A DNA stretch of 39,715 nucleotides, from assembly GCA_964498235.1 (NCBI GenBank), contig CAZCHB010000001.1, positions 1 through 39,715 of the forward strand. The letters are read 5' to 3'. Positions 6,001 to 39,715 of this stretch are shown piece after piece (positions within the stretch are counted from its first letter, which is position 1; each line of letters begins with the position of its first letter). The notes under the pieces are model-generated. The model was not told where the DNA came from and did no database searches. It saw nothing but the letters and a program-made list of their open reading frames with translations. The position numbers and the translations under genes are program-made. Origin of the DNA: an uncultured Planctomycetales bacterium. GTDB lineage: Bacteria; Omnitrophota; Gorgyraeia; Zapsychrales; Fredricksoniimonadaceae.

Positions 6001-7546
6001 GATTTGAATCACTACATTCTTTTGCGGGGTCTGAACAAATCATGTCATCAATAAGCTTAACGATCTGATATTGCGCCTCCGCCTTGATCAATCCCAACAT
6101 TAATCCCTTGCCAAAACTCGCGGCAAAACCTGCCATGGTTAATTCCTTAGTGGCATTTGCGGCAACTGCGGATGCGCTCGCGCCTGGCGCGGCTGTTACG
6201 GCGCTTGACCCTAAATTAAAAAGCTCCTTAAAGAAATCGCCGATCTTATTAAAAATATTATTGATGCCGTTATAAACGTCTTTGATAAATCCGCCGATGC
6301 CCGTGTCCCCGGCTTCTTTGACCATTGCGCCCAATGCGCCTCCAGATGCGGCGGCGGCAGGATCTATATATCCGGCCCCATAGTTAATCCCCATCGACAA
6401 AGCTGCGGAGAGCAAAAACGCGGAATGGCCATCGCAAACACCTTGCATCACGCAGATACTTGTAATGGTGGAAACTAGCGATGACGCGGCAATCCCAAAG
6501 GCCATCCCGTACGGGCTTAAGACCGACATGGCAACCGTCAGCCCAATCTGGGTAAACAATTGTGTATCAGAAACAAAGCCGGGTAAATCCTTGCTTTGGT
6601 CGCGCCACTTATCGCCCCAGACAAATGCTTCTAAAGCTTGAGGAACAGATTCATACAGATTTGACTTGGCCGCCTTTAATAACAGCTTGCTAACAAAGGC
6701 ATAGCCATCCATTTTTTGTTCTAGGTCTTTTTTATCTAAAACTGACAGCTGGCCTAAATCAGCCACCGTAACCTTTTCACCCGAAACTTTTTTAACAGTG
6801 ATAAAATGTTCGCCCTTAAGGTGGACAATAAATGGCGCTTGGAGTTTTAAAATATCTTTGGGCTCTGCCTTAATGCTGGTGTAGTTTAATCCCAGCGCGT
6901 CCCCCACCTTATGGATCGCAAACAAGGTGCTTTTGAGTTTTGGTTCGCCAACCTTGATGATGTCACTCATCAGGTCAACAGAAATATTAAGCACCGCTAA
7001 TTCTTCCAGACTGCGGTTTTTATTTTGGGAATCAACGATATCTTTTAAGCTGTACGCCGCGCAATTAAGCGGATGAATGCCGGGCGCGTTTAACCAGCTA
7101 ATGATTTCCTGAATCTTGGCTTTATTAAATTTGGCCCTGGTCTCAACGTTTAACGCTGAGGATTCAGCACCCATTTTTTTATCCGGACTGTCTAAGTTGA
7201 TTTTTAAGTTAAGTTTATCTTTATCTTTAATCTGCTGTAATAAATACTCAACGCTTTTGGAAACTTGAACCGCCGGCAAAGGCATGGACATGCCGTTTTC
7301 ATTACTACGAACCATGCCAGCGCGTTCGCCCCAAATCACTGCTGGATTATAACCAAAAGCCCAGCTGATTTGATCAGGAATAAATGCGGTCAAAACAACA
7401 ATGGCAATTGTCCTAACCCATGCATTGAAACGACTTACGAAGATTGGAGCAGAAGGATTTAAAACGATGTTTTCCGTAACTGGAGCACCCTCAACGGATG
7501 GAGATGAATCAGGAGAATTATGTAAATTTTTCTCGTCGTGCATCAT
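1..7546 (-). CDS. Giant membrane protein, 5' part only (at least 2515 codons visible, gene continues past the left window edge). It has an N-terminal TM helix, a C39-like peptidase-like domain, a Gly/Ala-rich multi-TM block, then a long hydrophilic region.
   Basis: I read the reverse complement by eye from ATG ATG CAC GAC GAG (complement of 7541-7546) and found no in-frame stop down to base 1. All four minus-strand ORFs listed in 1-7546 (ends 2019, 3216, 4140, 5244) are in a different frame, and no minus ORF in the 7546 frame is listed. That is expected if the track omits ORFs lacking a stop inside the window. The N-terminus reads MMHDEKNLHNSPDSSPSVEG...WVRTIAIVVLTAFIPDQISWAF. Confidence 0.85.
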   Translation of the reverse strand, partial: MMHDEKNLHNSPDSSPSVEGAPVTENIVLNPSAPIFVSRFNAWVRTIAIVVLTAFIPDQISWAFGYNPAVIWGERAGMVRSNENGMSMPLPAVQVSKSVEYLLQQIKDKDKLNLKINLDSPDKKMGAESSALNVETRAKFNKAKIQEIISWLNAPGIHPLNCAAYSLKDIVDSQNKNRSLEELAVLNISVDLMSDIIKVGEPKLKSTLFAIHKVGDALGLNYTSIKAEPKDILKLQAPFIVHLKGEHFITVKKVSGEKVTVADLGQLSVLDKKDLEQKMDGYAFVSKLLLKAAKSNLYESVPQALEAFVWGDKWRDQSKDLPGFVSDTQLFTQIGLTVAMSVLSPYGMAFGIAASSLVSTITSICVMQGVCDGHSAFLLSAALSMGINYGAGYIDPAAAASGGALGAMVKEAGDTGIGGFIKDVYNGINNIFNKIGDFFKELFNLGSSAVTAAPGASASAVAANATKELTMAGFAASFGKGLMLGLIKAEAQYQIVKLIDDMICSDPAKECSDSNQIIKETLMIVGSTVGGSLAVGAFSLAADHLMDRAFFTPSLGLAGSDSAAEKGSQAVAAALNDQADSYVNSLPPEAQGANPAVIKQEYISGKLDALGAEAKAAIMGTLKDGAIEPQAFAGVVQSQGISFKGTSWSGAYDSAYTRQLIYIADDIKPVSFVDGMSKVMWDAVPTIAGQFSGMAVRLIAAQAGIKASDGFSQGLGQFVSAGTSGITSGFVYGRSGDDVWQSAYSALKTGAARAILSMAFASLEKSFIGKDDGTYDYRTNKAQFRALVFVASSVAAGGLMSILDQGNNHIGNIFNTQGTADKFINEARPDNGASARSNMGAFIESGKDALFGTNYLGQFLSTGTWGSVANFVAYSDTIDRLTGFTPQWAVQTEKLYNSIKANNVVGSGVNALGTSRAAGGLITPNYISGIPVASSTPSVDDQFHLALWQQNMITPGLMNIDHISNALEQPAITNFIAAVVEVPISAYITKEQARKLEGYGFTWRPQLHDVSKNGYDSSYAYAESMVNGKYLGVGSGAIFCPGVDKNMMTFAWNEQPGKEGRYAVSIMHAETAAKVQQWGITPEGQQVQNDQGVGVALVVKDENGYSFVDGRTPIADTIKSALVLGANVNLEGNFTDVRNQQNLHDQGVEFNTTWKASVPHGFVATSFNKGFDSKSPWGSSANIYSNVSGSRFGKIWGYGKLGATQIMGVDGKRNEFFLSREGFNDPNFASTGFRLGKNAQGANTMGIIGDAKYFGSMFGLNQAEENDLRTFVQAEGGDGWLAEMKKDGVLQGQAQGSVKNINERIISKAYSPADMQFLGVLPQSAADAGINDITFSIGAESRGGDKIFSFVGAAPASGNFQGTMKFWSFDDKGVADKNLANIVLTSGQNLGLSNVLSSSFKTFDNGQHVNFVKVQGLPSIAVDNNGRVKAGAVINGGRAYTMTNGAWKMPRQEGAGDDKEGLAAQHKNFIWDPAVGRYSTVATRALVSGFKEAEANINAGFIEEDKNGNVHVLYDAHGSMINPGNGRPEIFTADKGGQFNFGRGKDNKSYDERLVVTDNGVIENYGIFRYLDTPGKTYLSARNLAKNDALVLGRNQFIFITPDGKTHNHFFLTGANKQAQLIFEKGFGNQSRSGAEVEDGEYKGKYVFTVNTSVTKDLVFGISGAQGAQFSPNDMKYVSGWAQATSGNVTRDGRVIEQLVPVESKLFQYTFKGVKDAVIPVQVKFKGEPAGNEPATPFQQRQGDPKNLFRVVGNLTDGQILAKIGLSAADPKGTFAGNGEMVTDDGVPYARPYGSGLTEGRITFNDHFIAGQLSQDTSDVRVLMDKNFTITSTPTYNVTLTPHEGYRDGIYGIDIVNGKMRVDNGTYATVTTSAQSNAPDVFDAISFGIPAWTKTDTVRYADGQPTYVVDHSTVGIVANPLTNENIIINSKLTAMPDPAGLSSLKYMLLTDRGVMRPAGLDVLATGDIDQYTPEAGHRNVKINEVKFDATGLVDQAALGGSGQWYSRETTANVRPGTRGGVEPISLNSGVVLEGAIGTGSLFSTIDEAGFDSLKEHLNMNDSPDLGMNNLDQGKAYGKLRTAISEGKSALYFNLQDGMPTFNFNAINASIFNGITKDAPLTSNIESKVSRHDLDILDFNGGLVETGAYHLSMQGSLAPKDPNSLVLSGTVKMDNGSRNFFGTENLVQNIYGQKEWGSVRIHQSQLGVEVLNQLKKDGRVKINPQGFIEGYIPEEYAITSHTNQNYDNGFGGNIDTYGRFSPVSDSSYEITGGRLLTGAGQLMTSIDSATADDNHSRKMGWRFETSDAQWKASPLYNEDNRGRAWGFVFSGGEMNVPMLPGVVAKATGRLEEPPSEEKKLSDAQKAQVKAKIVSMVGEEEAKKYSKFKSAYDDDYGLKQVVMTRADGRGITVEIPTDNASQTKPVIATTAELQSMTLNEAQIKPTSFLLVNNYDGNFVSTADPSAQNLSVADKATFTWDINKANPDKPGEVVKSLTFTIKKDNDNNLVVNPEHITY

Positions 7547-7565: not shown

Positions 7566-7594
7566 ATTATAGCGACGATGCCAGTTTTTAGCAA
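7566..7594 (-). promoter_or_regulatory. Candidate sigma70-type promoter for the giant gene (TTGCTA-17 nt-TATAAT on the minus strand)
   Basis: On the plus strand, ATTATA at 7566-7571 and TAGCAA at 7589-7594 are separated by a 17-nt spacer. The element lies about 20 nt upstream of the ATG at 7546. No clear Shine-Dalgarno sits between them, so the leader would be very short. Confidence 0.3.
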
Positions 7595-7797: not shown

Positions 7798-7900
7798 AAT
7801 TAATGTCCAGACTGGACATTAATTGTGATTTTTTATCAAAACAATCTCCAGTCTGACAAAATTAATGTCCAGACTGGACAATTATTGTCCAGTCTGGAAA
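7798..7900. repeat. Array of four phased copies of the TGTCCAGWCTGGACA palindrome between the tadC stop and the giant-gene promoter
   Basis: Copy A at 7798-7824 is AATTAATGTCCAGACTGGACATTAATT, a perfect 13-1-13 palindrome. Copy B is degenerate (CTCCAGTCTGACA, centre 7852). Copy C has a perfect core at 7866-7880. Copy D at 7886-7900 is TTGTCCAGTCTGGAAA. The centres 7811, 7852, 7873 and 7893 are spaced 41, 21 and 20 bp apart. Confidence 0.9.
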
Positions 7901-10103: not shown

Positions 10104-12949
10104 TATAAGGCTCCTTTATCGCATTCAGTCCCGCCGACAAATCTTAATTGAATTTGTTCGCGGCCAGCCCCATTGCGGCCCAATTGATAACGCATGCACG
10201 CCTGAGAACTGATGCCAGAGGGCAATAAGTCTTTGACCACATCCCAGCATGCCCCGCTCTTGACATTAATCATAAAGGCATTGCGTAAGTTTTTCTTGTC
10301 GGCTGAGGTTATTCCCTCTCGGATTAAGGCGTCCAGTGTCGCCTTGCTGAGCCCCACGGCATTGCCGTCGTTATCATCGCGCCCCTCGCCGCAGTATCGG
10401 TTAAGGTCATCATTAATCCTGTCCCAGTCCCTAACCGGTGATCCCGGTTTTGAAAACATCAGTTTCCAGATGGGAAACTTATTCGCAAACGAAACGCCTG
10501 CCTGGCGGTCCTGATCCCAACGGGTAATCTTCGCGGCAACCCTCCCCGTGTGAGCTTGCAGTTCATAACAACGCGTGGAACCTAAAAACCCTTTGGTATA
10601 TGTCCGCACCCACGCCAACCGATTAGGACCACAGTTTCCCTTGGGACAATTGCCCGGACCCGAAACTTCCGCGGAAACAATGTGCCAATACGGTCTCGTC
10701 GATGTTTTTACCGGCGCATCTTTCCACCCATAAATAACATATCCCGGCAATTTACTGGAAGGATCAACTAATACACCGTTATAAATATTAATCAAACTAT
10801 CAATGGGGCCGCCATCTTCTAAGAAGGGTTCTAATTTTGCCAGGAACAGATCAATAGCATTAACCAAATCCCGGGCCTTCGTCTTCATTTCTTTAATTAA
10901 ATCAAGACGGGAATTGAATTTCGTTTTCTGGTATTTTACAAAATAGTCACGGCTGTCTTGCGCCCATTTCATATACAGCGACGGCGTTGAACAAAGATCG
11001 TAAGCTGGCGCAGGCCCTACCAACGAACGCGGTAAATTTTGACAGGAAACAGGCAGAGCAGGCGCCGCACCGCCGGCGCACATTAAAAATGCCGTCTGTA
11101 AATCCGCGGCGCAATCACCGAATTTAACATCATTATCCTTATTGTAATCGAAACAAGCCTCGACGCTCTCCAAGCTTCCCCAGCTCCCTTTTGATAAAAT
11201 ATAATTCTCCTCCGCGGTGGATATCAAATTCAAAGGGTTAGCAAGCGCATTGGCCGGCAAGCACCAGGCATTGTTGGAACTGTCTACGTTATCGGTTTTA
11301 GCAAGCCAGCCATTTAACCAGTCTTTAATTTTATTTAACCGCGGCGGATATTGGCGCAAGCGGCCTTTTCCATCGGGAGTTGCGTCTGTACACTGGTGTT
11401 GGTTGGTAATAGTAGTTATCGTATACGGAGACATGTCGGAACCCGCGTCCATCGTTGTAACCACACACTTCTCCTTAGCAAACCACGTCATGGCATCCGG
11501 ATACCACTGATCAATATTTAACCTCAGCTGTGTAGCATCTCCCTTGCCTAAATTATTGCTCCAGACATAAAATTCTTTCAAACCATAAACAATGTCATCC
11601 CATCCGTCTTCCGGCCACTGCTTCTTATTGATCGATTCGGAACAAGACTTGCATTGCGCAACTCCGTCAACATCAACCGTACACGCACCGCTATGTTTGG
11701 CGCAAACATCATACGGCCAACGGGAGGAACAATACAAATCATAACCTTTCTTCCAATTAAGCCCCGGAAGCGCGCTGTCAATATCATTCGTGCACGTGTT
11801 CTCATCGGCAATCTTATAATCACTCGCAGGAAGAACATTGTCCGTAATGATCCCGGATGCAAATGAGTCCGGTGCCGCCGCAGGGCCGATAGCACGATCT
11901 GGATCTGTCAATAATTTTTCCATCCCCCAAAAAATAGAAAACAGGCCCTTGGCATCGCCTTGATGGGGGTCAAAAGGTCCATCGGGAGACGGCTGACGAA
12001 CCTCGGCATCAACGCCCATCTTGGCTAAAAATGAAGTGCCGTTTTTATAATCAGGGTACGCTGGATCATAGGCATAATAAAACGTGCTCGCGTGCGGCCA
12101 CACCGTGGTATTCGCACAGCCGGGAGGAATATTATCCGCAGAGCAATACCCCGGCCTTAACCTAGGCGCGCTATACGGGTCAAGATTTGGATCTTTAAGG
12201 GGAACACAACATGGGTTGCAATGCGGATCATTAATATCCGTACAAGGAACTGTGATTTCTGCGCTTAACCCCCTTAACGCGTTTAAAAAAAGCGTAAGAT
12301 CATCCGCCGCAACTACCTGTAAGCTTTTTAATCGTTCAGTATAATAAATCCCAAAGCGTGGCACCATGTCCTCTGGCCTGGCTCCGCTAAAACCAATCAT
12401 CCCATTGGTGTTTAAATCAAAAAGATCCGGCACTTGAATTGGATCAGTAACTACATTTTGAATCCCATTCTGCACGCCCTGCTCGACAAATTGCGCGGTA
12501 ATCGGCAAATTAGACTGCATCTTATTCCACAGCCGCGTGAGACCCGGCTGGACAACCAGCACCTGCAAAGCCAGATTTAAAACAGCCATGGCTACCGCGG
12601 CCGCCAATAATGGAGCTGTTGCTGCGCCAAATACCGCTCCGCAGGCCGCGCAAGCCACGCTCAAGAAAACAATGGCAACAACAATAAGCAAGGTCAAAAA
12701 CGCCGCAAAAATACTATTTCTTTTACAAATTTTGGAAACCCCCCCCAAACTAGTCTGCATGACTTTCTCAGCATAACTCGCATAACTGGAGCCCATGGAT
12801 GAGGCGGTCGTTGTCGCCGCTGACATGGTCAAGGTTTTGACTTGGGCAATGCGCTGCCAATTAAGTGAAATGGCAAAAAAGATAATCGCCATGGCGGTCA
12901 GCAAAATCAATATTAAGGACGCCTGTCCTTGGGCTTGTTGTCGTCTCAT
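10103..12949 (-). CDS. TadG-like large pilus-associated protein with a Cys-rich extracytoplasmic region
   Basis: The 948-aa protein begins GQASLILILLTAMAIIFFAISLNWQRIAQVKTLTMSAATTTASSMG, which resembles the TadG/Tad_N pattern. A second hydrophobic block follows, then about 800 aa containing roughly 27 Cys by my count. I saw no obvious vWA MIDAS motif. It overlaps both neighbouring genes, consistent with translational coupling. Confidence 0.55.
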   Translation of the reverse strand: MRRQQAQGQASLILILLTAMAIIFFAISLNWQRIAQVKTLTMSAATTTASSMGSSYASYAEKVMQTSLGGVSKICKRNSIFAAFLTLLIVVAIVFLSVACAACGAVFGAATAPLLAAAVAMAVLNLALQVLVVQPGLTRLWNKMQSNLPITAQFVEQGVQNGIQNVVTDPIQVPDLFDLNTNGMIGFSGARPEDMVPRFGIYYTERLKSLQVVAADDLTLFLNALRGLSAEITVPCTDINDPHCNPCCVPLKDPNLDPYSAPRLRPGYCSADNIPPGCANTTVWPHASTFYYAYDPAYPDYKNGTSFLAKMGVDAEVRQPSPDGPFDPHQGDAKGLFSIFWGMEKLLTDPDRAIGPAAAPDSFASGIITDNVLPASDYKIADENTCTNDIDSALPGLNWKKGYDLYCSSRWPYDVCAKHSGACTVDVDGVAQCKSCSESINKKQWPEDGWDDIVYGLKEFYVWSNNLGKGDATQLRLNIDQWYPDAMTWFAKEKCVVTTMDAGSDMSPYTITTITNQHQCTDATPDGKGRLRQYPPRLNKIKDWLNGWLAKTDNVDSSNNAWCLPANALANPLNLISTAEENYILSKGSWGSLESVEACFDYNKDNDVKFGDCAADLQTAFLMCAGGAAPALPVSCQNLPRSLVGPAPAYDLCSTPSLYMKWAQDSRDYFVKYQKTKFNSRLDLIKEMKTKARDLVNAIDLFLAKLEPFLEDGGPIDSLINIYNGVLVDPSSKLPGYVIYGWKDAPVKTSTRPYWHIVSAEVSGPGNCPKGNCGPNRLAWVRTYTKGFLGSTRCYELQAHTGRVAAKITRWDQDRQAGVSFANKFPIWKLMFSKPGSPVRDWDRINDDLNRYCGEGRDDNDGNAVGLSKATLDALIREGITSADKKNLRNAFMINVKSGACWDVVKDLLPSGISSQACMRYQLGRNGAGREQIQLRFVGGTECDKGAL

Positions 12950-17207: not shown

Positions 17208-18617
17208 CTAATTCTCCTCGGAAACACACTTAACATTAATGCTCAAAATTTGGTCCGCTTCGTTTTTAACCCCCAGCGTACTGATTGCAGCACACCCTGA
17301 TTTTAGATTGTCCGCTGTTTCATAAACATTTGGAATTAATAGTGTTACAATCCTAATGTGACTATTAAAAGCGATTTGCCCTTTAAATAACATTAATTGA
17401 GACCACTGATCGTCGCTTAAAAGCCTTGGAAAACAAGACTGCGCCTGCAGCTTTAGGAAATCAATATAATTATTGACCGGTCCCTCGGGACTTTCCGCCA
17501 TAGATAAGGGCCCGTTAAAAGGATGCTGTTTAAAAAATTCGCGCACAATTTCCCCGTCGCTAATCGACTCAGAAAAATTGCTAATGAGAACCTTATAGGG
17601 CTCATTATTCTCTGCGCATAAAATCACTGCGCGGCATTTCATGTTAGCTAACAAGATTTCTTTAGCAAAAAATCTCAGCGGCGCCTCTTGGCCGTAAGCG
17701 TCAACTATTAACATTTCTTTGTTTGAAATATTCATAAATTCTTTTATATCAACTACTTGTGTTCCTATCCCAACAATAAACTGCTTTTTGGGCGCACCTT
17801 CTAAAGGAAAACTGACAAACGCTTCTCCCTCTTTATCCAAAAGATCTATTTTAACAATGCCTTTCCCCGGCCGCCCTTGACACGATAAGAAAAAGTCAAA
17901 AAAGAAGGCCTCAAGCGATTCTCCTGCAACCTCTTTTATTACAATAGGTTGTAAATTGTTTACAAAAAGATTAGCCGCTGCTGTCAGCGCCCTCTCCAGC
18001 GGGGCCGGCCAATTTTTGCCCTCTTTCGCCTGAAGCCCTTGCAAGCGGCTATCCACACAAAAAGAGCTCCCATCTTCTAATAAAAATCTATAACCATAAA
18101 TCACCAAAGACCTATAAAGCAGTTCTTCCTTTAAACTATTGAAATCAAATGATTTAAAATCTTCTAGCGAGCTCATCCCCCGCCATGGTTTGGGAAAAAA
18201 ATCGTAATGCACGGCTTTTAAAATATACTCTCCCGCCCCTTGCTGAATCCCAGCATCTGTTAGCGCCATTAGCGGTTCATGATTAACTGTTTTAACTGCC
18301 GTTGGCAGCTCAATTTTTTCGTGCTTAACGAAAACAGGAGAGGGGCTTGCTTCTTCCAATGGCTTTACGCGCGGTTGAACAAATAACTGCGCCTTCTTTT
18401 CATAAGGAATTTGAAATTTTTCTTTTTGTTTACGGCCGCGGGGACTGCCAATTTTAGCTTCAATTAATACTTCATTGATAGATGATTTTGACACTTGGCG
18501 TTCGAATTGTGTTTGAATTTGATGCGCTAATTCCCGACAGGATAATTGGGGCAATTCACGCTTTTGCGTTAAAATAAAATGGACAATCTCTTCTGTCAGC
18601 TTATATTTAACGCCCAC
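17208..18617 (-). CDS. Unknown protein with an N-terminal helix-turn-helix-like domain, embedded in the Tad operon
   Basis: The 469-aa ORF has a GTG start. Residues 1-60 (KLTEEIVHFILTQKRELPQLSCRELAHQIQTQFERQVSKSSINEVLIEAKIGSPRGRKQ) look like a small HTH domain. I recognise no family in the rest. A palindrome copy lies 19-37 nt upstream of the start. Confidence 0.5.
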   Translation of the reverse strand: MGVKYKLTEEIVHFILTQKRELPQLSCRELAHQIQTQFERQVSKSSINEVLIEAKIGSPRGRKQKEKFQIPYEKKAQLFVQPRVKPLEEASPSPVFVKHEKIELPTAVKTVNHEPLMALTDAGIQQGAGEYILKAVHYDFFPKPWRGMSSLEDFKSFDFNSLKEELLYRSLVIYGYRFLLEDGSSFCVDSRLQGLQAKEGKNWPAPLERALTAAANLFVNNLQPIVIKEVAGESLEAFFFDFFLSCQGRPGKGIVKIDLLDKEGEAFVSFPLEGAPKKQFIVGIGTQVVDIKEFMNISNKEMLIVDAYGQEAPLRFFAKEILLANMKCRAVILCAENNEPYKVLISNFSESISDGEIVREFFKQHPFNGPLSMAESPEGPVNNYIDFLKLQAQSCFPRLLSDDQWSQLMLFKGQIAFNSHIRIVTLLIPNVYETADNLKSGCAAISTLGVKNEADQILSINVKCVSEEN

Positions 18618-18635: not shown

Positions 18636-18654
18636 AATGTCCAGACTGGACATT
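18636..18654. repeat. Palindrome copy E (AATGTCCAGACTGGACATT, perfect 9-1-9) between DUF192 and the HTH gene
   Basis: The core at 18638-18652 is exact. A left half-site TTGTCC at 18658-18663 implies a second centre about 21 bp away, the same geometry as copies C and D. Confidence 0.9.
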
Positions 18655-32826: not shown

Positions 32827-33915
32827 TTATAAACGCATGGGCAATGCTAAATACAGGTAGTCCCTTAACCTTAACACACATGGTTTATCCGGCCCTAAAA
32901 ATTCAAAATCAATCCGTTCATCGCTAATATTTTTTAACACATCAATAAAAAATTGCGGATTAAATCCAACCATTAGTTCTTGTTGGCCATATTCAACATT
33001 AATTTCTTCGCGGCATTCTCCAACATCCGGTGTATTTTTTGAAATCACCAGCTTTTCTTTAAATAATTCAAATTTAATCGCTTGAAAATCAGGTGTTGAT
33101 AATAAATTTGCCCGGCGTATTGCCGCTAATAAGTCTTGGGTTCTAATTTTTACTTTAGTAGGAATTTCTTTTGGAATAACCTGCTTATAATTAGGGAATT
33201 CCCCTTCAATAATTCGTGTCGCGATTAAAACACCGTCAATATTAAACAACACTTGATTAATGCCGCTAATAATCGTGCAGTTACCTGTATCTTTTAGATT
33301 ACGGTTAATTTCTGCAATAGCCTTAATAGGAAGAATAATATTAAAATCTTTAATACTGCTTTGAATTAATTTCTTTTCAATTTTTGCTAAACGCCGGCCA
33401 TCGGTCGCCACCATTAATACTTTATCTCCGCTAATCTCTAGTAAAATACCATTTAAAACATATCGTGATTCTTCATACGACACTGCAAAATTTGTTAAGC
33501 GGATCATTTCTTTTAAGTCTGCTTGTTTTATCAATACAGCATCTTTGTCTTTAAATTCTGGGAATTTTGGAAATTCTTCTTTAGGCAAACCATTTAATTT
33601 AAAACGGCAGTTAGTTCCTTCAATCTCAATTTGATTGTTCTTACGCGCGTAAATAATCACATCTCCTGTTGGCAGTTCACGGATAATATCACTAAATTTT
33701 TTTGCAGGAATAGTTATTGCCCCTTGTTCAAGGTTATGCACAGGCAATTCACAGGATATACCAATATCTAAATCAGTCGCGTTTAACTTTAAAACATCAT
33801 CCTTAGCTTCTAAAAGCATATTAGATAGAATTGGTAGTGTGGCTTTTGATGAGACAATATTGCCTACCACTTGAATACCGCCTAAAAGTTCTTCCTTGCT
33901 TATTTTAATTTTCAT
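32827..33915 (-). CDS. dnaN: DNA polymerase III beta sliding clamp
   Basis: The 362-aa protein has typical length and context. It begins MKIKISKEELLGGIQVVGNIVSSKATLPILSNMLLEA and ends LALPMRL. Confidence 0.93.
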   Translation of the reverse strand: MKIKISKEELLGGIQVVGNIVSSKATLPILSNMLLEAKDDVLKLNATDLDIGISCELPVHNLEQGAITIPAKKFSDIIRELPTGDVIIYARKNNQIEIEGTNCRFKLNGLPKEEFPKFPEFKDKDAVLIKQADLKEMIRLTNFAVSYEESRYVLNGILLEISGDKVLMVATDGRRLAKIEKKLIQSSIKDFNIILPIKAIAEINRNLKDTGNCTIISGINQVLFNIDGVLIATRIIEGEFPNYKQVIPKEIPTKVKIRTQDLLAAIRRANLLSTPDFQAIKFELFKEKLVISKNTPDVGECREEINVEYGQQELMVGFNPQFFIDVLKNISDERIDFEFLGPDKPCVLRLRDYLYLALPMRL

Positions 33916-34085
33916 GATGTTATCCTTACCTTATCTACTTTTATTTTTAAGATTTCTTAAAACAGCCGTCTTATTAGTAAGGGCTGTGGATAAATTGAAT
34001 TACAAATAAAAGTCATTTATTTTCAATAACTTAGAATATTAACACCTGTGGATAACCCGTTTATAACTTTTTTACTTATTCAAGT
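33916..34085. promoter_or_regulatory. Candidate oriC segment 1 (dnaA-dnaN intergenic): two perfect DnaA boxes in AT-rich DNA
   Basis: TGTGGATAA (the complement of TTATCCACA) occurs at 33985-33993 and 34047-34055. Two 2-mismatch boxes (TTATCCTTA, TTATCTACT) lie near 33920-33945, and the flanks are AT-rich. Confidence 0.55.
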
Positions 34086-35417
34086 TTATTCTAATAACAT
34101 TACAGCTAATTGATCAACAATTTTTTTTGTTTCTTTATTAGTGGTTAGTTCTAATTCAATTTTTTTAAAAGCATGTAGGATGGTAGTATGGTCTTTCCCT
34201 CCAAAAGCCCCGCCAATTTCAGGTAATGAATGCGTGGTTAATTTGCGGGATAGGTACATGGCCACTTGCCGCGGTAAAATAATATTTTTATGGCGTTTTT
34301 TGGTTTTTAAATCTGCAACATGGATGTTAAAGAACGCCGCAACTTCTTTTTGCACCATTTCAACACTAATGGTTTTAACTGTTTCTTTAACCATATCTTT
34401 TAACACATTTTTTGCGACTTGCAAGGAAATGGGCTTATCTTCTAATAATGAATACGCAACAACACGGATCAGGGCCCCTTCTAGTTCACGGATATTTGTT
34501 TTTATTTCACTGGCAATAAAGGTCACCACATCGTCGGGAACAACCACCGATTCTAATTCCAGCTTCTTTTTAAGGATGGCGACGCGTGTTTCATAATCCG
34601 GGGGTTGGATGTCGGTGATCAGTCCCCAGGCAAAACGCGATACTAAGCGTTCTTCTAAATTCGAAATTTCTTTTGGCGGACGATCAGAGCAAATAATGAT
34701 TTGTTTACGGTGGTCGTGCAAGGTATTAAATGTATGAAAAAATTCTTCTTGGGTAGATTCTTTGCCGGCGATAAAATGGATATCATCAATTAACAATACG
34801 TCGATGCCGCGGTATTTTTGACGGAAACTTTCAGCTGAGCGGTGGCGGATAGCATTAATTAATTCATTTGTAAATTGTTCAGATGAAATGTAACACACTT
34901 TTAAACTCGGATGCTTGCGGGCAACTTCTTGTGTAATGGCCTGCATTAGGTGGGTCTTACCTAGTCCAACCGGCCCATAAATGAATAATGGATTATAAGC
35001 TCTGGCCGGAGATTCAGCGACGGCCTGAGCAGCTGCAAAGGCAAATCGGTTTGAGGGTCCAACGACAAAGTTTTCAAACAGGAAGCGCTGGTTAAGGTTC
35101 TGTGCGGATTTAACTGCTGGATCAAAATGGGTTTCAAGTTTATTTAAACGTTCCTTGGCAGGAGCAGTCAATAGCTGGGCATTGACTTCAAAAACAACCT
35201 TGGCTTCTCCCCCGCCCTCCTGCCGCATCAGGCGTTCAATGGTAGCGCTGTAGTGTTCGACTATCCAACCTTTAAAAAATTCATCCGGCGTCTCAACAAT
35301 AACAACCCCGTCTCGGTCAAAGGCTTTTAAGCTGCCGAACCATGTATCATATGAGGTGTCGCCGACACTTGTTTTTAAGGAAGACTGTATTTTTTGCCAA
35401 ACAAACAATGGATTCAT
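34086..35417 (-). CDS. dnaA: Chromosomal replication initiator DnaA
   Basis: The 443-aa protein has Walker A (GPVGLGKTHL), Walker B (VLLIDDIHF), and a C-terminal DnaA-box-binding HTH (HKNIILPRQVAMYLSRKLT...IGGAFGGKDHTTILHA). Confidence 0.97.
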   Translation of the reverse strand: MNPLFVWQKIQSSLKTSVGDTSYDTWFGSLKAFDRDGVVIVETPDEFFKGWIVEHYSATIERLMRQEGGGEAKVVFEVNAQLLTAPAKERLNKLETHFDPAVKSAQNLNQRFLFENFVVGPSNRFAFAAAQAVAESPARAYNPLFIYGPVGLGKTHLMQAITQEVARKHPSLKVCYISSEQFTNELINAIRHRSAESFRQKYRGIDVLLIDDIHFIAGKESTQEEFFHTFNTLHDHRKQIIICSDRPPKEISNLEERLVSRFAWGLITDIQPPDYETRVAILKKKLELESVVVPDDVVTFIASEIKTNIRELEGALIRVVAYSLLEDKPISLQVAKNVLKDMVKETVKTISVEMVQKEVAAFFNIHVADLKTKKRHKNIILPRQVAMYLSRKLTTHSLPEIGGAFGGKDHTTILHAFKKIELELTTNKETKKIVDQLAVMLLE

Positions 35418-35668
35418 TATAGACGGGTAAAGCCTTTAATTAGACACAAGTTATCCACAGCTGTGAATATCTCCGACGGTAAAAGTACTTTCAGGAAGGC
35501 CATTATAACAAACAAAAACGGTAATGCAATAGAATTTGTGCTAACCCTTAGCAATTTCTGTCTTTTTATTCCGCCCATTACCCCAAATCCCTTGACTTCA
35601 AGAAGGACTATGCTATAATTTCCAAATTATTTTAAAGTCGAAACACTTAACAAAAATAGAGGTATGTC
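35418..35668. promoter_or_regulatory. Candidate oriC segment 2 and the divergent dnaA/rpmH control region
   Basis: A perfect TTATCCACA at 35451-35459 abuts an inverted 2-mismatch box (TGTGAATAT at 35462-35470). Gene orientation switches here: everything to the left is on the minus strand (except tRNA-Glu), and everything to the right is on the plus strand. Confidence 0.5.
35592..35619 (+). promoter_or_regulatory. Candidate rpmH promoter (TTGACT-16 nt-TATAAT)
   Basis: TTGACT lies at 35592-35597 and TATAAT at 35614-35619, about 50 nt upstream of the rpmH GTG. Confidence 0.5.
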
Positions 35669-35812
35669 GTGAAAAAGCATTTAAAAACACCAACGAATTT
35701 AGTAGGAAAAAAAAGACACGGTTTTCGTAAACGCATGGCTACCGCCGACGGAAGAGAAGTATTAGCCCGCCGCCGCGCTAAAGGCCGTCGAAAGCTTATT
35801 CCATCAGCCTAA
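35669..35812 (+). CDS. rpmH: 50S ribosomal protein L34 (47 aa, GTG start; not in the ORF track)
   Basis: My hand translation is [47 protein letters not shown]. This contains the L34 signature HGFRxRMAT..GRxVLxRRRAKGR. Confidence 0.9.
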
Positions 35813-35818
35813 ATTATA

Positions 35819-36040
35819 TTGTTAACAATGATCCCAAAGGTTCTTATTGCTACCATCAGAATCTATCAGCAGGCATCCTTCCTGTTGGCAATTCGATGTT
35901 GCCGTTTTTATCCTTCGTGCTCACAGTATGCGATTGATGCTGTATCCAAACATGGCGTAACCCGAGGAACTGCAATGGCTTTTAATCGTATTTTACGCTG
36001 CTCACCATTATCCCAAGGCGGATTTGATCCAGTAAGGTAG
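35819..36040 (+). CDS. yidD: Membrane protein insertion efficiency factor YidD (the real start is possibly the ATG at 35828)
   Basis: The motif [45 protein letters not shown] is the YidD signature. Confidence 0.85.
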
Positions 36041-36047
36041 ATAAACA

Positions 36048-37610
36048 ATGAATCAGAAGACACTTTTAGCAATTATTCTTTCCATTATGGTTCTATTTGG
36101 GTATGAAGCTATATTTGTTGCTCCAAAACGTGCCCAAATGTTAAAAGAATCGAAAAGTATTACTGAAAAAGAACTTACGCAAAATAAAGAAATTTTAACT
36201 CAGGTCACGGACGCCGTCCAAGAAAAAACCAAAAACAAGCAATTTGAAGGCAAAATATGGGAAATTAAAACCCCTTCATTTGTATCACATGTGACAAATG
36301 AGGGCGGCGCGCTCCATAATATTAAGGTGGGGGCAGGACACGCCTTTCCTTTAAACCAAATTATCACCATCAAGGGGATTAGTGAGTCGGAATTCAAATT
36401 GGTTTCACAAAACGCAGATAAGACGGTTTTATCATACCAAGATGATAAAAAGAGGGTTTTAAAGACATATGAAGTTAAGGATCGGAATACAATTTTAGCC
36501 AGAGTGGACATTAATTCAAAAGAAATGTCCAGTCTGGACAATGTTCAGTTTCAGATTTTCAGAGTGGACAATTCTTTGATTGATAGTAATGACAAACGTG
36601 ACATGGGGCTGGAGGAGTACTCAGTATCAGCTAATAAGAAAATATTTAGAAAAAACAATATTTCGAAATTTAATCCAAAAGAAAATAAGATTGAATCGAT
36701 TGATATTGACTGGGCAGGATTCCGGAATCATTTTTCAACCATTGTTATTCATCCTGATTTTGCGACGAAAGCCTATGAAATAAATACAGTTACAGAAAAA
36801 CAGTTAAGTATATATGTGACGCCTGCAAGCCAAAGCACCAGCTATGAATTTACCTGCTATATAGGACCTCAAGATCCAGCGCTCATGAAGAAGTACGAAA
36901 AGGGGATTGAAAACATATTTGCCTTTTTTAATTGGAATGTGCTCGATATTTTTGCCAAGGCAATATATTTCACAATTCCTTTTCTACATTCTATATTTAA
37001 AAGTTGGGGATTTAGTATTATTTTGATTAGTCTGATTATTTATGGGTTAACATATCCGCTAACATTTAAAAGCATGATGTCTATGCGAAAAATGCAGCAA
37101 GTCCAGCCGAAGATCAAGGCATTACAAGACCGTTTTAAAAATGACCCGCAGAAGCTAAATACTGAAATTATGGATATATACAAGAAAGAAAAGATTAATC
37201 CGCTGGGGGGGTGTTTACCGTTCCTGCTTCAAATGCCCATTTTTGTTGCTTTATATCAAGTGTTGTGGAGATCTTATTATTTTCAAGGAGAATCATTTCT
37301 ATGGATTAAAGATTTAGCCCTGCCTGACAGGCTATTTATTATGCCTTTTTCCTTGCCTTTATTAGGAAATGAATTTAATATATTACCATTGTTAATGGCG
37401 GCAGTTATGTTTTTACAACAGAAGATTTCGTCTAAAAATTTGGTTGTCACCGACGAGCAGCAGGCTATGCAGCAAAAAATGATGTTATATTTATTTCCGA
37501 TTTTTATAGGTTTTATTTTTTATAAATTTGCCAGCGGGCTATCGCTATATTTTACTGTTTTTTATGCTTTATCCGCCGCAACGCAGTGGAAAATGAGTAA
37601 GATAAAATAG
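36048..37610 (+). CDS. yidC: Membrane protein insertase YidC (long form with a periplasmic P1 domain)
   Basis: The 520-aa protein has an N-terminal TM segment and the conserved core NPLGGCLPFLLQMPIFVALYQVL...LYLFPIFIGFIFYKFASGLSLYF. Confidence 0.93.
   Translation: MNQKTLLAIILSIMVLFGYEAIFVAPKRAQMLKESKSITEKELTQNKEILTQVTDAVQEKTKNKQFEGKIWEIKTPSFVSHVTNEGGALHNIKVGAGHAFPLNQIITIKGISESEFKLVSQNADKTVLSYQDDKKRVLKTYEVKDRNTILARVDINSKEMSSLDNVQFQIFRVDNSLIDSNDKRDMGLEEYSVSANKKIFRKNNISKFNPKENKIESIDIDWAGFRNHFSTIVIHPDFATKAYEINTVTEKQLSIYVTPASQSTSYEFTCYIGPQDPALMKKYEKGIENIFAFFNWNVLDIFAKAIYFTIPFLHSIFKSWGFSIILISLIIYGLTYPLTFKSMMSMRKMQQVQPKIKALQDRFKNDPQKLNTEIMDIYKKEKINPLGGCLPFLLQMPIFVALYQVLWRSYYFQGESFLWIKDLALPDRLFIMPFSLPLLGNEFNILPLLMAAVMFLQQKISSKNLVVTDEQQAMQQKMMLYLFPIFIGFIFYKFASGLSLYFTVFYALSAATQWKMSKIK
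36499..36576. repeat. Three palindrome-family sites at exact 30-bp spacing inside the yidC coding sequence
   Basis: F1 is CCAGAGTGGACATTAATT (centre 36503). F2 has a perfect core TGTCCAGTCTGGACA at 36526-36540 (centre 36533). F3 is CAGAGTGGACAATT (centre 36563). The region encodes ARVDINSKEMSSLDNVQFQIFRVDNS. Confidence 0.85.
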
Positions 37611-37614
37611 CACA

Positions 37615-37821
37615 ATGATATTCGAAGGTGATACAAAAGAGTTTGAGGGTTGTACAGTAGAAGAGGCTATTTGTAAGGCGGAAAAGTCTTTTGGTGCGTC
37701 ACGTGAAACCATGCAAATTAAGATTGTTTGTGAAGAGCAAAAAGGTCTATTTGGGATGAGGGGCGCAAAATTGGCCAAGATAAAGGTCAAATCCGTTCCA
37801 CGTGGAACTAAGAAGTCCTGA
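37615..37821 (+). CDS. Jag/KhpB N-terminal-domain-only protein (no KH or R3H domains)
   Basis: The 68-aa protein sits in the canonical jag position after yidC. EGCTVEEAICKAEKSFGASRETMQIKIVCEEQKGLFGMRGAKLAKIKV fits the Jag_N pattern. Confidence 0.6.
   Translation: MIFEGDTKEFEGCTVEEAICKAEKSFGASRETMQIKIVCEEQKGLFGMRGAKLAKIKVKSVPRGTKKS
37695..37710. promoter_or_regulatory. Degenerate parS-like site (13/16 match)
   Basis: TGCGTCACGTGAAACC compared with the consensus TGTTNCACGTGAAACA. Confidence 0.35.
37794..37809. promoter_or_regulatory. Near-canonical parS centromere site
   Basis: CGTTCCACGTGGAACT has a perfectly palindromic inner 14 bp (GTTCCACGTGGAAC) identical to the conserved parS core TGTTCCACGTGGAACA. 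It lies 67 nt upstream of the parA start. Confidence 0.8.
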
Positions 37822-37829
37822 ATTTTTAA

Positions 37830-37851
37830 ATTAATGTCCAGTCTGGACAAT
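37830..37851. repeat. Palindrome copy G (ATTAATGTCCAGTCTGGACAAT) between parS and the parA start
   Basis: The perfect core is at 37835-37849 (centre 37842), 34 nt upstream of the parA ATG. A weak half-site GTCCTG is centred 21 bp upstream at 37821. Confidence 0.9.
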
Positions 37852-37875
37852 AAATCCAAATAAATAGGCGTTTTT

Positions 37876-38685
37876 ATGGGAAAAACAATAGCTATATGTA
37901 ATCAAAAAGGTGGGACAGGAAAAACCACAACATCGGTTAATTTATCAGCTGCGCTTTCATTTGCTGATAAAAAAGTGTTATTGGTTGATATGGATCCTCA
38001 GGGAAATGCCAGCAGTGGCGTTGGGATTAACAAGAATGATATTCAGGTTTCTGTATACGACATATTAGTTCATAAATCCAAAATACAAGATGTTATCATT
38101 AAAACTAACTATAAAAATCTTGATGTTATTCCTTGTAACATTCAATTAACAGGCGCTGAAATTGAATTGGTTGGCGCCTTATCAAGAGAAACTAGGCTGA
38201 AGAAGGCCATTGAAAGTATTAAAGATCAGTATGATTTTATTTTTATTGATTCTCCGCCATCATTAGGGCTATTAACCCTTAATGCTTTAGTAGCTGCAGA
38301 TTCTATTCTGATTCCAATTCAATGCGAGTTTTATGCGCTTGAAGGAGTGTCACAACTCATTAATACTATTGAACTTATAAAAGATGGTCTAAATTCTTCT
38401 TTGGAGATTCAAGGTGTTTTGATGACCATGGCTGATTTTCGGACCAATTTAACTAATGAAGTTATTAATGAAATCAAAAATTACTTCAAAGATAAGGTAT
38501 ACAATACGGTTATTCCGCGCAATATCCGGCTTAGTGAAGCGCCTAGTTTTGGCAAGCCGATTAATTATTATGATCCAGCATCAGTTGGCTCAATCAAATA
38601 TAAAGAGCTTGCTCAAGAATTTTTAGGCATGCCTCAGGTTACAGCGCAAGCCATTCATCTAGGAGAAAATCAGAATGGACAATAA
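37876..38685 (+). CDS. parA: Chromosome partitioning ATPase ParA/Soj
   Basis: The 269-aa protein has a deviant Walker A (NQKGGTGKTTTSVNLSAAL) plus VLLVDMDPQGNAS and FIFIDSPPSLG. Confidence 0.93.
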   Translation: MGKTIAICNQKGGTGKTTTSVNLSAALSFADKKVLLVDMDPQGNASSGVGINKNDIQVSVYDILVHKSKIQDVIIKTNYKNLDVIPCNIQLTGAEIELVGALSRETRLKKAIESIKDQYDFIFIDSPPSLGLLTLNALVAADSILIPIQCEFYALEGVSQLINTIELIKDGLNSSLEIQGVLMTMADFRTNLTNEVINEIKNYFKDKVYNTVIPRNIRLSEAPSFGKPINYYDPASVGSIKYKELAQEFLGMPQVTAQAIHLGENQNGQ

Positions 38686-39574
38686 AGTTTTAGGCAAGGG
38701 GTTGTCAGCTTTAATACCGCAGCGCAAAACAGAGCAATATGTGTCTGTTTATTCAGAAGAAAAAAACAATGTCCATTCTGAAAGCAATAAAAAAGATGAA
38801 TTAATGTCCAGTCTGGACATTAATTTAATAAGAAACAACCGTTTTCAGCCGCGCAAAAATTATGATGAGTCTAAACTAGGCGAATTAAAAGCTTCAATTA
38901 AAGAAAAAGGCGTGCTTCAGCCTATTTTAGTACGTCCAGTTGGTAATGAATATGAAGTTGTAGCAGGGGAGCGCCGCTTAAGGGCCTCAAGAGAACTGAA
39001 CTTAAAAAAAGTGCCTGTTATTATTAAAAATATTACCGATCGCGAAGCTTTAGTTTTAGCATTGGTTGAAAATATCCAGCGGGAAGAATTAAACCCCATT
39101 GAAGAAGCCCAAGGGTTTAAGCGTTTGATCGAAGAATTTAATTTTACGCAGGAAACAGTGGCGGACTCAGTTGGCAAAGACCGCACAACCGTTACCAATT
39201 TTTTGCGATTGCTGAAACTGCCAAAAGAAATTCAAGATTTTGTTGCTTCGGATAAATTGTCGGTTGGACATGCGCGTACGTTGTTAAGTCTCGACGAGAA
39301 AATGCAAAAAAAGACAGCGGCGGATATTATAGCTAAAGGCTTGTCTGTCCGTCAGGTTGAGGCCATGGTTAAGAAAATTCTCGAAGGCCATCTAGCTGGC
39401 GCGCCTAAGAAAATCTCTTCTAAAGTGCGGGATATACAGATTCTCGAGGAGGAATTAAGCCGGACGCTGGGGACCAAGGTCTGTGTTGAAAATAAAAACA
39501 ATAAAGGCAGGGTTGTTATTGAATATTATTCATTAGACGACTTAGACCGTATTTTAGGAGTTATAAGAAAATGA
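38675..39574 (+). CDS. parB: Chromosome partitioning protein ParB/Spo0J
   Basis: The 299-aa protein contains LGKGLSALI, FQPRKNYDESKLGELKASIKEKGVLQPILVRP, GERRLRAS (CTP-binding box) and the HTH QETVADSVGKDRTTVTNFLRLL. Confidence 0.93.
   Translation: MDNKVLGKGLSALIPQRKTEQYVSVYSEEKNNVHSESNKKDELMSSLDINLIRNNRFQPRKNYDESKLGELKASIKEKGVLQPILVRPVGNEYEVVAGERRLRASRELNLKKVPVIIKNITDREALVLALVENIQREELNPIEEAQGFKRLIEEFNFTQETVADSVGKDRTTVTNFLRLLKLPKEIQDFVASDKLSVGHARTLLSLDEKMQKKTAADIIAKGLSVRQVEAMVKKILEGHLAGAPKKISSKVRDIQILEEELSRTLGTKVCVENKNNKGRVVIEYYSLDDLDRILGVIRK
38799..38825. repeat. Palindrome copy H2: a perfect 27-bp palindrome inside the parB coding sequence
   Basis: AATTAATGTCCAGTCTGGACATTAATT is the exact reverse complement of copy A at 7798-7824. 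It encodes ELMSSLDINL. A degenerate copy (AATGTCCATTCTGAAAG) is centred at 38777. Confidence 0.9.
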
Positions 39575-39715
39575 AAGAGCAGGTGTTGGTTTTAATCAAA
39601 CCCGACGGCATGCAAAAAGGATTAGCCGGTGAGATTTTGAATATTTTCCAAATGTCCGACTTAAAAATGGTCGGTTTAAAGTTAGTTCAAGTCAGCAAGC
39701 CTTTGGCACAAGCGC
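39571..39715 (+). CDS. ndk: Nucleoside diphosphate kinase, 5' part (runs off the right edge)
   Basis: My hand translation is MKEQVLVLIKPDGMQKGLAGEILNIFQMSDLKMVGLKLVQVSKPLAQA, which contains the Ndk N-terminal signature (LIKPDG...G.I). Its start overlaps the parB stop (ATGA). Confidence 0.8.
   Translation, partial: MKEQVLVLIKPDGMQKGLAGEILNIFQMSDLKMVGLKLVQVSKPLAQA

Follow-up and report, generated by a model that had tools for sequence, protein, structure and literature searches.

The DNA analysed here, a stretch of 39,715 nucleotides that we call the window, is the replication-origin region of a Candidatus Omnitrophota genome; the nearest relatives of its YidC protein are all from Omnitrophota metagenome-assembled genomes (MAGs), at 43-64% identity. 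Our subject is a group of three sites of one palindrome family that lie within the reading frame of yidC, the gene for a membrane insertase with a periplasmic P1 domain (PF14849 and PF02096). The gene and its sites are as follows.

36048-37610, forward strand: yidC, host to the three sites
36496-36510, centre 36503: site 1, weak; TAGCCAGAGTGGACA, that is TAGCCA-GAG-TGGACA, then TTAATT; 7.2 bits, rank 12
36526-36540, centre 36533: central site, strong; the perfect palindrome TGTCCAGTCTGGACA, TGTCCA-GTC-TGGACA; 27.9 bits
36556-36570, centre 36563: site 3, weak; TTTTCAGAGTGGACA, TTTTCA-GAG-TGGACA; 11.7 bits, rank 9

A preliminary description of this DNA had reported three sites 30 bp apart in the yidC frame, the outer two sharing an 11-mer, and the sequence reads as it said. 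The flank centres lie exactly 30 bp before and 30 bp after the centre of the central palindrome, and the 11-mer CAGAGTGGACA occurs without a mismatch at 36500 and 36560, once in each flank. Both flanks are weak, with two or three mismatches against the degenerate consensus; their right half, TGGACA, is perfect, their spacer is GAG, and their left halves match the motif at 4/6 and 5/6 positions. Over the three sites the yidC frame encodes ...ILARVDINSKEMSSLDNVQFQIFRVDNS..., to which site 1 contributes (L)A-R-V-D-I, the central site M-S-S-L-D and site 3 (I)F-R-V-D-N.

These sites are instances of a motif found throughout Omnitrophota, T[G/T]TCCA-N3-TGGA[A/C]A, which is palindromic over 15 bp, with an odd centre and AT-rich flanks. 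The form TGTCCAG[A/T]CTGGACA is perfect at six window positions (7804, 7866, 18638, 36526, 37835 and 38805), a copy with one mismatch lies at 7886, and flanking bases lengthen the palindrome to TTAATGTCCAGNCTGGACATTAA. With up to three mismatches allowed, the window holds 12 matches, where 0.75 are expected. A position weight matrix built from 37 sites of relatives, with the window excluded and hence independent of it, scores the seven strong window sites at 23.8-29.6 bits; over the roughly 39,700 positions of the window, 0.16 matches of at least 11.7 bits and 0.84 of at least 7.2 bits arise in shuffled sequence. Four of the five window positions with intermediate scores lie 20-42 bp from a strong site. 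The family members outside yidC, with the two partition genes that carry some of them, are listed here.

7804-7900: array of four sites, at 7804 (strong), 7845 (weak, 7.6 bits), 7866 (strong) and 7886 (strong)
18638-18652: strong site, 21 bp upstream of the start codon of a helix-turn-helix (HTH) gene, a putative autoregulatory operator; 28.8 bits
37835-37849: strong site, 27 bp upstream of the parA start codon; 28.1 bits
37876-38685, forward strand: parA
38675-39574, forward strand: parB
38770-38784: weak; TGTCCATTCTGAAAG, in the 5' linker of parB, at 35 bp from the strong site there; 11.3 bits
38805-38819: strong site in the parB linker, within the extended palindrome AATTAATGTCCAGTCTGGACATTAATT, encoding M-S-S-L-D; 29.5 bits

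Conservation of the central site and its flanks

In orthologs at 50-64% protein identity the same yidC codons read (T/C)TTCCAG[A/T]CTGGA(A/C)(A/G), and the central site is kept at these codons in L001, L002, L003, L006, L009, L012, L161, L163 and L164 (loci from relatives are given L numbers). To measure constraint, we codon-aligned 31 yidC orthologs and computed the excess synonymous identity in each of 516 five-codon windows. The top five all overlap the central site, with a codon identity of 0.88 where 0.25 is expected. All 24 sequences with serine at position 161 use TCC for it, and 20 of 22 use CTG for Leu163, despite the AT-rich genomes. The best YidC relative is 64% identical, so that close relatives for a fine-scale synonymous test were not available, and the matches listed by a metagenome scan added little. 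A second peak of synonymous identity, at yidC residues 34-46 (36147-36185), was set aside as an A-rich bias in Lys, Gln, Glu and Thr codons of a disordered linker with no motif.

The partition genes provide a second view of the same constraint. The motif occurs at two different positions of the parB linker, with equivalent linker sites in most relatives, and is read as S-S-L-E/D in most lineages and as F-Q-S-G in L081 and L005. For the conserved ParA peptide NSSLEI, the codons of L003, L006, L087 and L167 form the motif, whereas those of the window (AAT TCT TCT TTG GAG ATT) do not. By these comparisons the constraint acts on the nucleotides and not on the peptide, because the synonymous peak, the two reading frames in parB and the two spellings of NSSLEI all point that way. 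The proposal that the coding sequence accommodates a DNA-level signal is borne out by the nucleotide conservation of the central site, its top rank in synonymous constraint and the two reading frames used in parB.

How the protein accommodates the sites was viewed in an AlphaFold2 model of YidC built from 77 sequences (mean pLDDT 83). In it, site 1 (residues 151-155) falls in a strand, E148-157; the central site (residues 160-164) in a short helix or turn, H160-165; and site 3 (residues 171-175) at the end of a strand, E168-174. The strong site is thus modelled in the connection between two β-strands of the P1 domain, and this short helix or turn joining the two flank-bearing strands fits the surface loop about which the preliminary description had asked.

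For the two flanks the evidence is of a different kind. They are spelled with codons that are rare in the six origin genes: AGA is used for 10 of 80 arginines (12.5%), GTG for 30 of 133 valines (23%), GAC for 33 of 95 aspartates (35%), TTC for 14 of 99 phenylalanines (14%) and GCC for 28% of alanines. With the peptides fixed, C-AGA-GTG-GAC would be spelled with a probability of about 0.003 in one flank and 0.0014 in the other. At distances of 15-100 bp from strong sites, the density of weak sites (7-18 bits) over all Omnitrophota loci is about 36 times that elsewhere (23 observed, 0.64 expected), a count that includes homologous positions, so that its P value overstates independence. The position homologous to site 1 carries CAGAATGGAAA (GTC AGA ATG GAA ATT), identical in 13-14 relatives, with a moderate synonymous excess (0.60 observed, 0.37 expected). 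At site 3 synonymous identity is only that of the background (0.56 versus 0.48); L167 alone has a similar sequence there, CAGAATGGAT, and in other lineages third sites appear 15-30 bp further on, at residues 177-185 or 193-195. Of the flank conservation on which the preliminary description had made its hypothesis depend, the part concerning site 1 therefore stands, as a half-site in many relatives, and the part concerning site 3 does not, since it is unconserved at its position.

It could be that only the central palindrome is functional and that the flanks are by-products of coding two similar β-strands (R-V-D), helped by chance. This would fit the record of site 3, the conservation of the site-1 peptide V-R-M-E-I at the protein level, the placement of both flanks within the β-strands of one hairpin, and flank scores of just 7-12 bits. 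It does not sit well with the joint codon-choice probabilities, which extend over AGA, GTG, GAC, TTC and GCC, with the motif-like left halves of the flanks, with the family-wide enrichment of weak sites beside strong ones, with the fixation of GTC (Val) and AGA (Arg) in 13-14 relatives at site 1, or with the recurrence of third sites nearby in other lineages. We regard it as rather unlikely: codon usage, weight-matrix ranks and weak-site enrichment weaken an origin of the flanks in chance or coding, and for site 3 taken singly such an origin is possible.

The same yidC segment again has arrays of two or three sites in L007 and L084, where the spacings are 33 and 45 bp, and in L162, where the spacing is 30 bp. 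Site 1 and the central site are 30 bp apart in the window and L162 and 33 bp apart in L007, L008, L011 and L084; third sites lie at +45, +87 or +93 bp in relatives, and arrays elsewhere have spacings of about 20, 41-45 or 48-51 bp, those at promoters about 20 bp. The exact 30-bp, 10-codon period emphasized in the preliminary description is thus not conserved, being 33 bp in most relatives. To judge from these orthologs, the array is a recurrent theme whose weak members turn over, and its exact period is particular to this genome. Helical phasing is only weakly suggestive, as 13 of the 21 spacing classes deviate by no more than 2 bp from a multiple of 10.5, and we give it no weight.

Over the ±10 kb around yidC in relatives, strong sites are confined to the stretch from the yidC P1 region to the 5' end of parB. 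Recurrent positions are yidC residues 152, 157, 163, 178-181 and 195, parA residues 81 and 175, parB residues 21-48 and the parA/parB junction. In about 3 Mb from non-Omnitrophota phyla there was a single match at 18 bits or more. A scan of the whole collection for AATTTCCAGWCTGGAAATT found 28 places, about 13 of them in Omnitrophota-type MAGs, and of these, the ones outside par loci lie upstream of giant or very large open reading frames (ORFs). We rejected mobile palindromes of the REP or MITE type, as orthologs of 50-64% identity have the copies at homologous codons and few copies occur beyond three types of locus. At the parA/parB junction of the window, positions 38667-38681 read CAGAATGGA(C/A)A, a half-site that includes the parB start codon; this half-site recurs at 7-12 bits in L018 (1650-1664), L083 (5479-5493) and L165 (2722-2736).

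The motif at promoters and a candidate binding protein

Away from the par locus, the strong sites of the window lie upstream of two genes on the reverse strand.

17208-18617, reverse strand: HTH gene; its 469-aa product, with an HTH of homeodomain or transposase type at the N terminus, is the candidate motif binder
2-7546, reverse strand: giant ORF of at least 2,500 aa, with its start near 7546, leaving the window at its left end
7566-7594, reverse strand: giant-gene promoter, sigma-70-like, TTGCTA-17-TATAAT

The HTH gene lies within a locus resembling Tad and type II secretion systems (T2SS), upstream of the giant gene. In L277 a positional ortholog follows DUF192 in the corresponding secretion locus and is likewise preceded by a site. 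Searches with the 469-aa protein as a single sequence returned nothing in the genome scan and two weak protein-database matches; a three-sequence alignment found the family at 63 loci, essentially all Omnitrophota, and a profile search of the protein database added only four further members. A site of at least 7 bits lies within 120 bp upstream of the HTH gene at 43 of the 63 loci, against 0.3% of background windows, and one of at least 15 bits at 26 of the 63, against 0.06%. It is usually centred 12 bp before the ATG, directly after a TTGAC(G/A)-17-TATAAT promoter. In one Omnitrophota clade (L310, L320, L322, L325, L326, L331, L339 and L340) a second copy, (C/T)GTCCAATCTGG, abuts and overlaps the -35 element TTGACA, about 53 bp from the start-codon copy and roughly 60-75 bp upstream of the HTH-gene start. 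Across genomes, then, the palindrome is conserved on or just after the promoter of a gene for a DNA-binding protein, which in comparative genomics is the usual signature of autoregulation.

The same motif stands upstream of giant genes in the window, L263, L267 and L270. The array at 7804-7900 is about 240-330 bp upstream of the giant-gene promoter, and the four upstream regions can be aligned, each with two to four motif sites; AT-rich DNA of some 170-250 bp separates these from a conserved TTGCCA-17-TATAAT promoter, after which comes the start codon. A role of the sites as terminators of an upstream gene is excluded by L267 and L270, where the neighbouring gene points the other way. Par-locus sites are present in the same MAGs, and the HTH gene occurs together with par-locus and/or giant-gene sites in CAZFNI, JANNCL, JAGWOI, JAYVSG and CAZABZ. 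The motif is thus a real sequence family under DNA-level selection, distributed over these three kinds of locus and associated with the HTH gene.

Some further arrays were seen in or near such loci. In L256, three sites exactly 20 bp apart (25.4, 15.5 and 14.3 bits) at 2610-2664 lie upstream of a large secreted-protein ORF, a 20/21-bp spacing like that of 7845, 7866 and 7886 in the window. In L170, three tandem ATGTCCAA half-sites at intervals of about 13-20 bp occupy 10990-11050, between genes of the secretion locus, with no recognizable HTH ortholog nearby; what had been presumed to be the start of an HTH ortholog in that locus was a 25-aa ORF. In the window, TTTCCAGATGGGAAA at 10463-10477 (15.4 bits), within a 948-aa ORF of the secretion locus, is the top-scoring site without an adjacent strong site. 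The N terminus of the giant protein, M-[IM]-H-D-[GE], is conserved in L263, L267 and L270.

The HTH protein is the best candidate for the reader of the motif, because its own promoter carries the motif, the signature of an autoregulated repressor, and we infer that it would bind these sites. An AlphaFold2 model of the protein has a mean pLDDT of 64 and a three-helix N terminus at pLDDT 83-88. Its matches to HTH_32 and HTH_Tnp_Tc3_2 are weak, all below the curated thresholds. A Foldseek search of the model against the PDB returned nothing at E <= 0.001, with all TM-scores below 0.25, and the protein has no PDB sequence-profile match and no Pfam family above threshold.

Another Omnitrophota DNA-binding protein might read the motif instead, with the HTH gene merely one of its targets; the yidC array would then still be protein-bound. 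The association of the site with the HTH gene is equally expected of a target gene, the HTH domain matches fall short of their thresholds, and co-variation gives no discrimination. A promoter site at the gene of a DNA-binding protein throughout the phylum is nevertheless what autoregulation usually leaves behind, and in about 0.6 Mb of Omnitrophota loci the sites have no consistent linkage to any other gene for a DNA-binding protein. A different reader of this kind seems to us doubtful.

The yidC array as a proposed operator array

We read the three yidC sites as a strong-plus-auxiliary operator array for the autoregulated HTH protein, set within the P1 segment of YidC, and give this reading a probability of roughly 0.55. 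The sites would form a binding array on double-stranded DNA, with one high-affinity operator and two low-affinity auxiliary operators, written into a β-strand/short-helix/β-strand segment of the P1 domain that would tolerate it. The motif would most likely be read by a dimeric, sequence-specific protein, and the weak flanks may fill cooperatively once the central site is occupied. Three classes of target would make up the regulon: the regulator's own gene; the far-upstream region of the giant surface-protein gene; and the intragenic sites of yidC, parA and parB, which bracket canonical parS by about 1 kb on each side. What binding would do at the par locus is a matter of speculation. It might roadblock or repress the rpmH-yidD-yidC-jag-parAB transcription unit, which would tie genes of growth and segregation to the machinery of attachment or predation; other speculative options are looping between the sites on the two sides of parS, or interference with the sliding of ParB.

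Several observations weigh against this reading. For a classical operator, conserved sites within essential genes are an unusual location, and no nearby promoter was found that would explain the sites inside yidC. Both flanks are in direct orientation, without mirror symmetry about the centre; the 30-bp spacing is not kept in orthologs; site 3 is neither conserved at its position nor above background in synonymous identity; and with the site-1 peptide itself conserved, nucleotide conservation at site 1 may be partly protein-level. On the side of the protein, the C-terminal 380 aa match nothing known, the half-site TGTCCA is near-constant upstream of the HTH gene and so yields no co-variation signal, and, as said above, a target gene would be expected to show the same association with the site. 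The Tad loci of L169 and L170 have no strong sites in the parts covered.

Known systems resemble such an operator array in part. Arrays of autoregulated HTH repressors, for example OR1-OR3 of phage lambda, likewise have odd-centred palindromic operators, a strong site with weaker ones a few helical turns away, and an operator on the regulator's own promoter. Here, however, the protein family is uncharacterized, with no Pfam match above threshold and no PDB relative, and is known from sequence; most of the conserved sites, moreover, are intragenic or more than 200 bp upstream of promoters. Intragenic operators and roadblocks (lac O2 in lacZ, the PurR operator in purB, CcpA cre sites of coding regions) also lay a regulator site over a reading frame, so that two codes coincide, and lie downstream of a strong promoter, here a predicted rpmH promoter at 35592-35619. 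They differ from the present case, known at the level of sequence, in that the hosts here are essential housekeeping genes, with conservation throughout the phylum and clusters of two or three sites. Global cell-cycle regulators of the CtrA type, with binding near the origin and control over pilus genes, offer an analogy, since here too a single motif connects housekeeping loci close to the origin with a pilus or secretion locus of Tad type; CtrA reads TTAA-N7-TTAA, however, and neither its motif nor its protein family is related, and of replication control there was no sign in this analysis.

The array could also be an RNA-level signal, an option that the preliminary description had left alongside DNA: the mRNAs of yidC, parA and parB, or antisense RNAs, would form hairpins that act on stability, translation or antisense termination. 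A 95-nt sense RNA folds at -25.9 kcal/mol (z = -3.25), with site 1 paired to the left half-site of the central palindrome, folding of the extended palindromes gives -12 to -15 kcal/mol, and a terminator scan flags several sites on the antisense strand, each then followed by a T-rich run. Folding, however, comes automatically with repeated palindromic half-sites, and the core forms an AT-rich 6-bp stem closed by a loop of 3 nt. There is co-variation of positions 2 and 14 between lineages, yet mixed half-sites such as TGTCCAG.CTGGAAA, which break pairing, are common at conserved positions, and the motif folds as any palindrome does. The central base is A or T about equally often on the sense strand. 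We favour DNA recognition because of the mixed half-sites, the locations in divergent promoter-upstream DNA and the operators over -35 elements, and consider an RNA-level signal highly improbable. Among specific RNA candidates, a known RNA family was dismissed, as Rfam finds only tRNA in the window, and so was an intrinsic terminator: the sites are in frame inside yidC, parA and parB, their stems are AT-rich 6-bp cores, and they are flagged on the antisense strand only.

The centromere site of the partition genes, with which we compared the array, falls in the window in the gene between yidC and parA.

37615-37821, forward strand: Jag_N-only gene
37794-37809: CGTTCCACGTGGAACT, the only parS-like sequence in the window, inside the Jag_N coding sequence; core GTTCCACGTGGAAC at 37795-37808

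About 37 of 41 Omnitrophota loci have canonical parS in or beside jag in addition to the new motif. Relatives L001-L168 have one or two such copies, often at jag residue 30 and residues 61-66. The motif itself was rejected as parS, since it has 15 bp and an odd centre where parS is the 16-bp tGTT(T/C)CACGTG(A/G)AACa, and it is a second, independent family because canonical parS is present separately in nearly all relatives. It resembles the parS/ParB system in being a palindrome near the origin, with several copies around parAB and tolerated in coding sequence, as parS is inside spo0J of B. subtilis; it is unlike it in sequence and length, in having a canonical parS 1 kb away, and in occurring at promoters as well. 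A DnaA box (9-mer TTATCCACA) was excluded too: the perfect boxes lie elsewhere, and the flanks (TGTCCACTC) differ from it at 3/9 positions.

The sites may nonetheless serve the partition apparatus, as a second centromere-like site for ParB or a ParB/Noc-like paralogue, or as a boundary confining ParB clamps to about 2.2 kb around parS. In relatives, the strong sites within ±10 kb of yidC bracket parS, about 1.3 kb before and 0.9 kb after it; the core TTCCA/TGGAA is shared with the parS half-site GTTCCAC, and the flanks, reading GTGGACA, come nearer to parS. Set against this are the intact and separately conserved canonical parS, the odd centre of the motif, which puts its half-sites one bp further apart than those of parS, the presence of the same motif at places distant from parS, namely the HTH promoter and the DNA upstream of giant genes, and the failure to see a ParB paralogue in any retrieved locus. 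The Noc binding site (NBS) of Firmicutes, ATTTCCCGGGAAAT, has an outer half-site, ATTTCC/GGAAAT, that matches the common Omnitrophota variant ATTTCCAGNCTGGAAAT; its half-sites, however, are not 3 bp further apart as they are here, Noc is a Firmicutes ParB paralogue of which none was seen here, and NBS sites are spread over the chromosome and are not clustered at par. A partition role for the par-locus copies leaves the promoter copies unexplained, and we judge it improbable. The link to parABS as such, implied in the preliminary description, has to be given up: canonical parS is separate and co-resident, and the motif also stands at promoters far from the origin.

Returning to the operator array of the HTH protein, a wider form of this reading would have a phylum-wide regulator-operator system couple the centromere region (parS, yidC, parA and parB), both physically and functionally, to the machinery of predation or attachment of these nanobacteria, meaning the T2SS/Tad-like locus and the giant surface protein. 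The operator clusters in essential genes on both sides of parS would then be roadblocks or boundaries to transcription or to ParB clamps, and segregation would be gated by the state of host attachment. We think this quite unlikely. Omnitrophota are uncultured, ultra-small and probably predatory or host-dependent bacteria, and to our knowledge nothing is known of gene regulation in them. The motif strings were not found in the literature searched, the literature on Omnitrophota giant genes mentions no regulator or palindrome, and the regulator-operator system is apparently undescribed so far. Three observations, the 15-bp palindrome, the candidate HTH protein beside the secretion and giant-gene locus and the conserved targets, would together outline a concrete regulon, with unexpected targets inside yidC, parA and parB around the centromere. 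The putative operator in yidC would also be a clean natural case of overlapping codes, as the strongest signal of synonymous constraint in an essential gene, across a phylum, with the same DNA word fitting different reading frames. If binding is confirmed, the motif would provide a first handle on giant-gene regulation and on a possible link between segregation and predation.

Gene neighbourhood of the window

On the other side of yidC lie two genes on the reverse strand.

32827-33915, reverse strand: dnaN
34086-35417, reverse strand: dnaA

Perfect DnaA boxes are found at 33985, 34047 and 35451, and the cumulative GC skew turns near 35-36 kb. Between dnaA and yidC are a short rpmH-like ORF, downstream of the strong rpmH promoter predicted above, and a small ORF in the position of yidD in L163, both assigned by eye and synteny only; in 35670-36047 the rpmH-like ORF appears to be followed directly by the small ORF and then by yidC. 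No rnpA-sized ORF is present between the rpmH-like ORF and yidC in the window, and none is called in L162 or L163, although no profile search was made. The left two-thirds of the window hold housekeeping genes and gyrB- and gyrA-sized ORFs, named from synteny with L163, together with the Tad/T2SS-like secretion locus and the giant ORF; the same arrangement has been described for Omnitrophota giant genes (bioRxiv 10.1101/2023.11.21.568195).

Base composition differs along the window, G+C being about 44-49% in 1-32000 and about 33-37% across dnaN-dnaA-yidC-parAB (33000-39715). The preferred arginine codons in the genes of this second region are CGT and CGC, not AGA.

The usual Jag protein includes KH and R3H RNA-binding domains. 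The jag/khpB homolog of the window, and those of all relatives with gene calls that were read, consist of the Jag_N domain alone (63-78 aa), with KH and R3H missing.

In two relatives the interval between yidC/jag and parA has received other genes: by eye, a HicA/HicB-like pair in L014 (11618-12042), and pilin-like and membrane proteins in L003 (11840-14295). As candidate binders of the motif, the genes inserted between jag, parA and parB in L001, L003 and L014 were set aside, their translations looking pilin-like, HicA/HicB-like or like nothing known. The par loci of L014 and L003 retain canonical parS copies despite the insertions.

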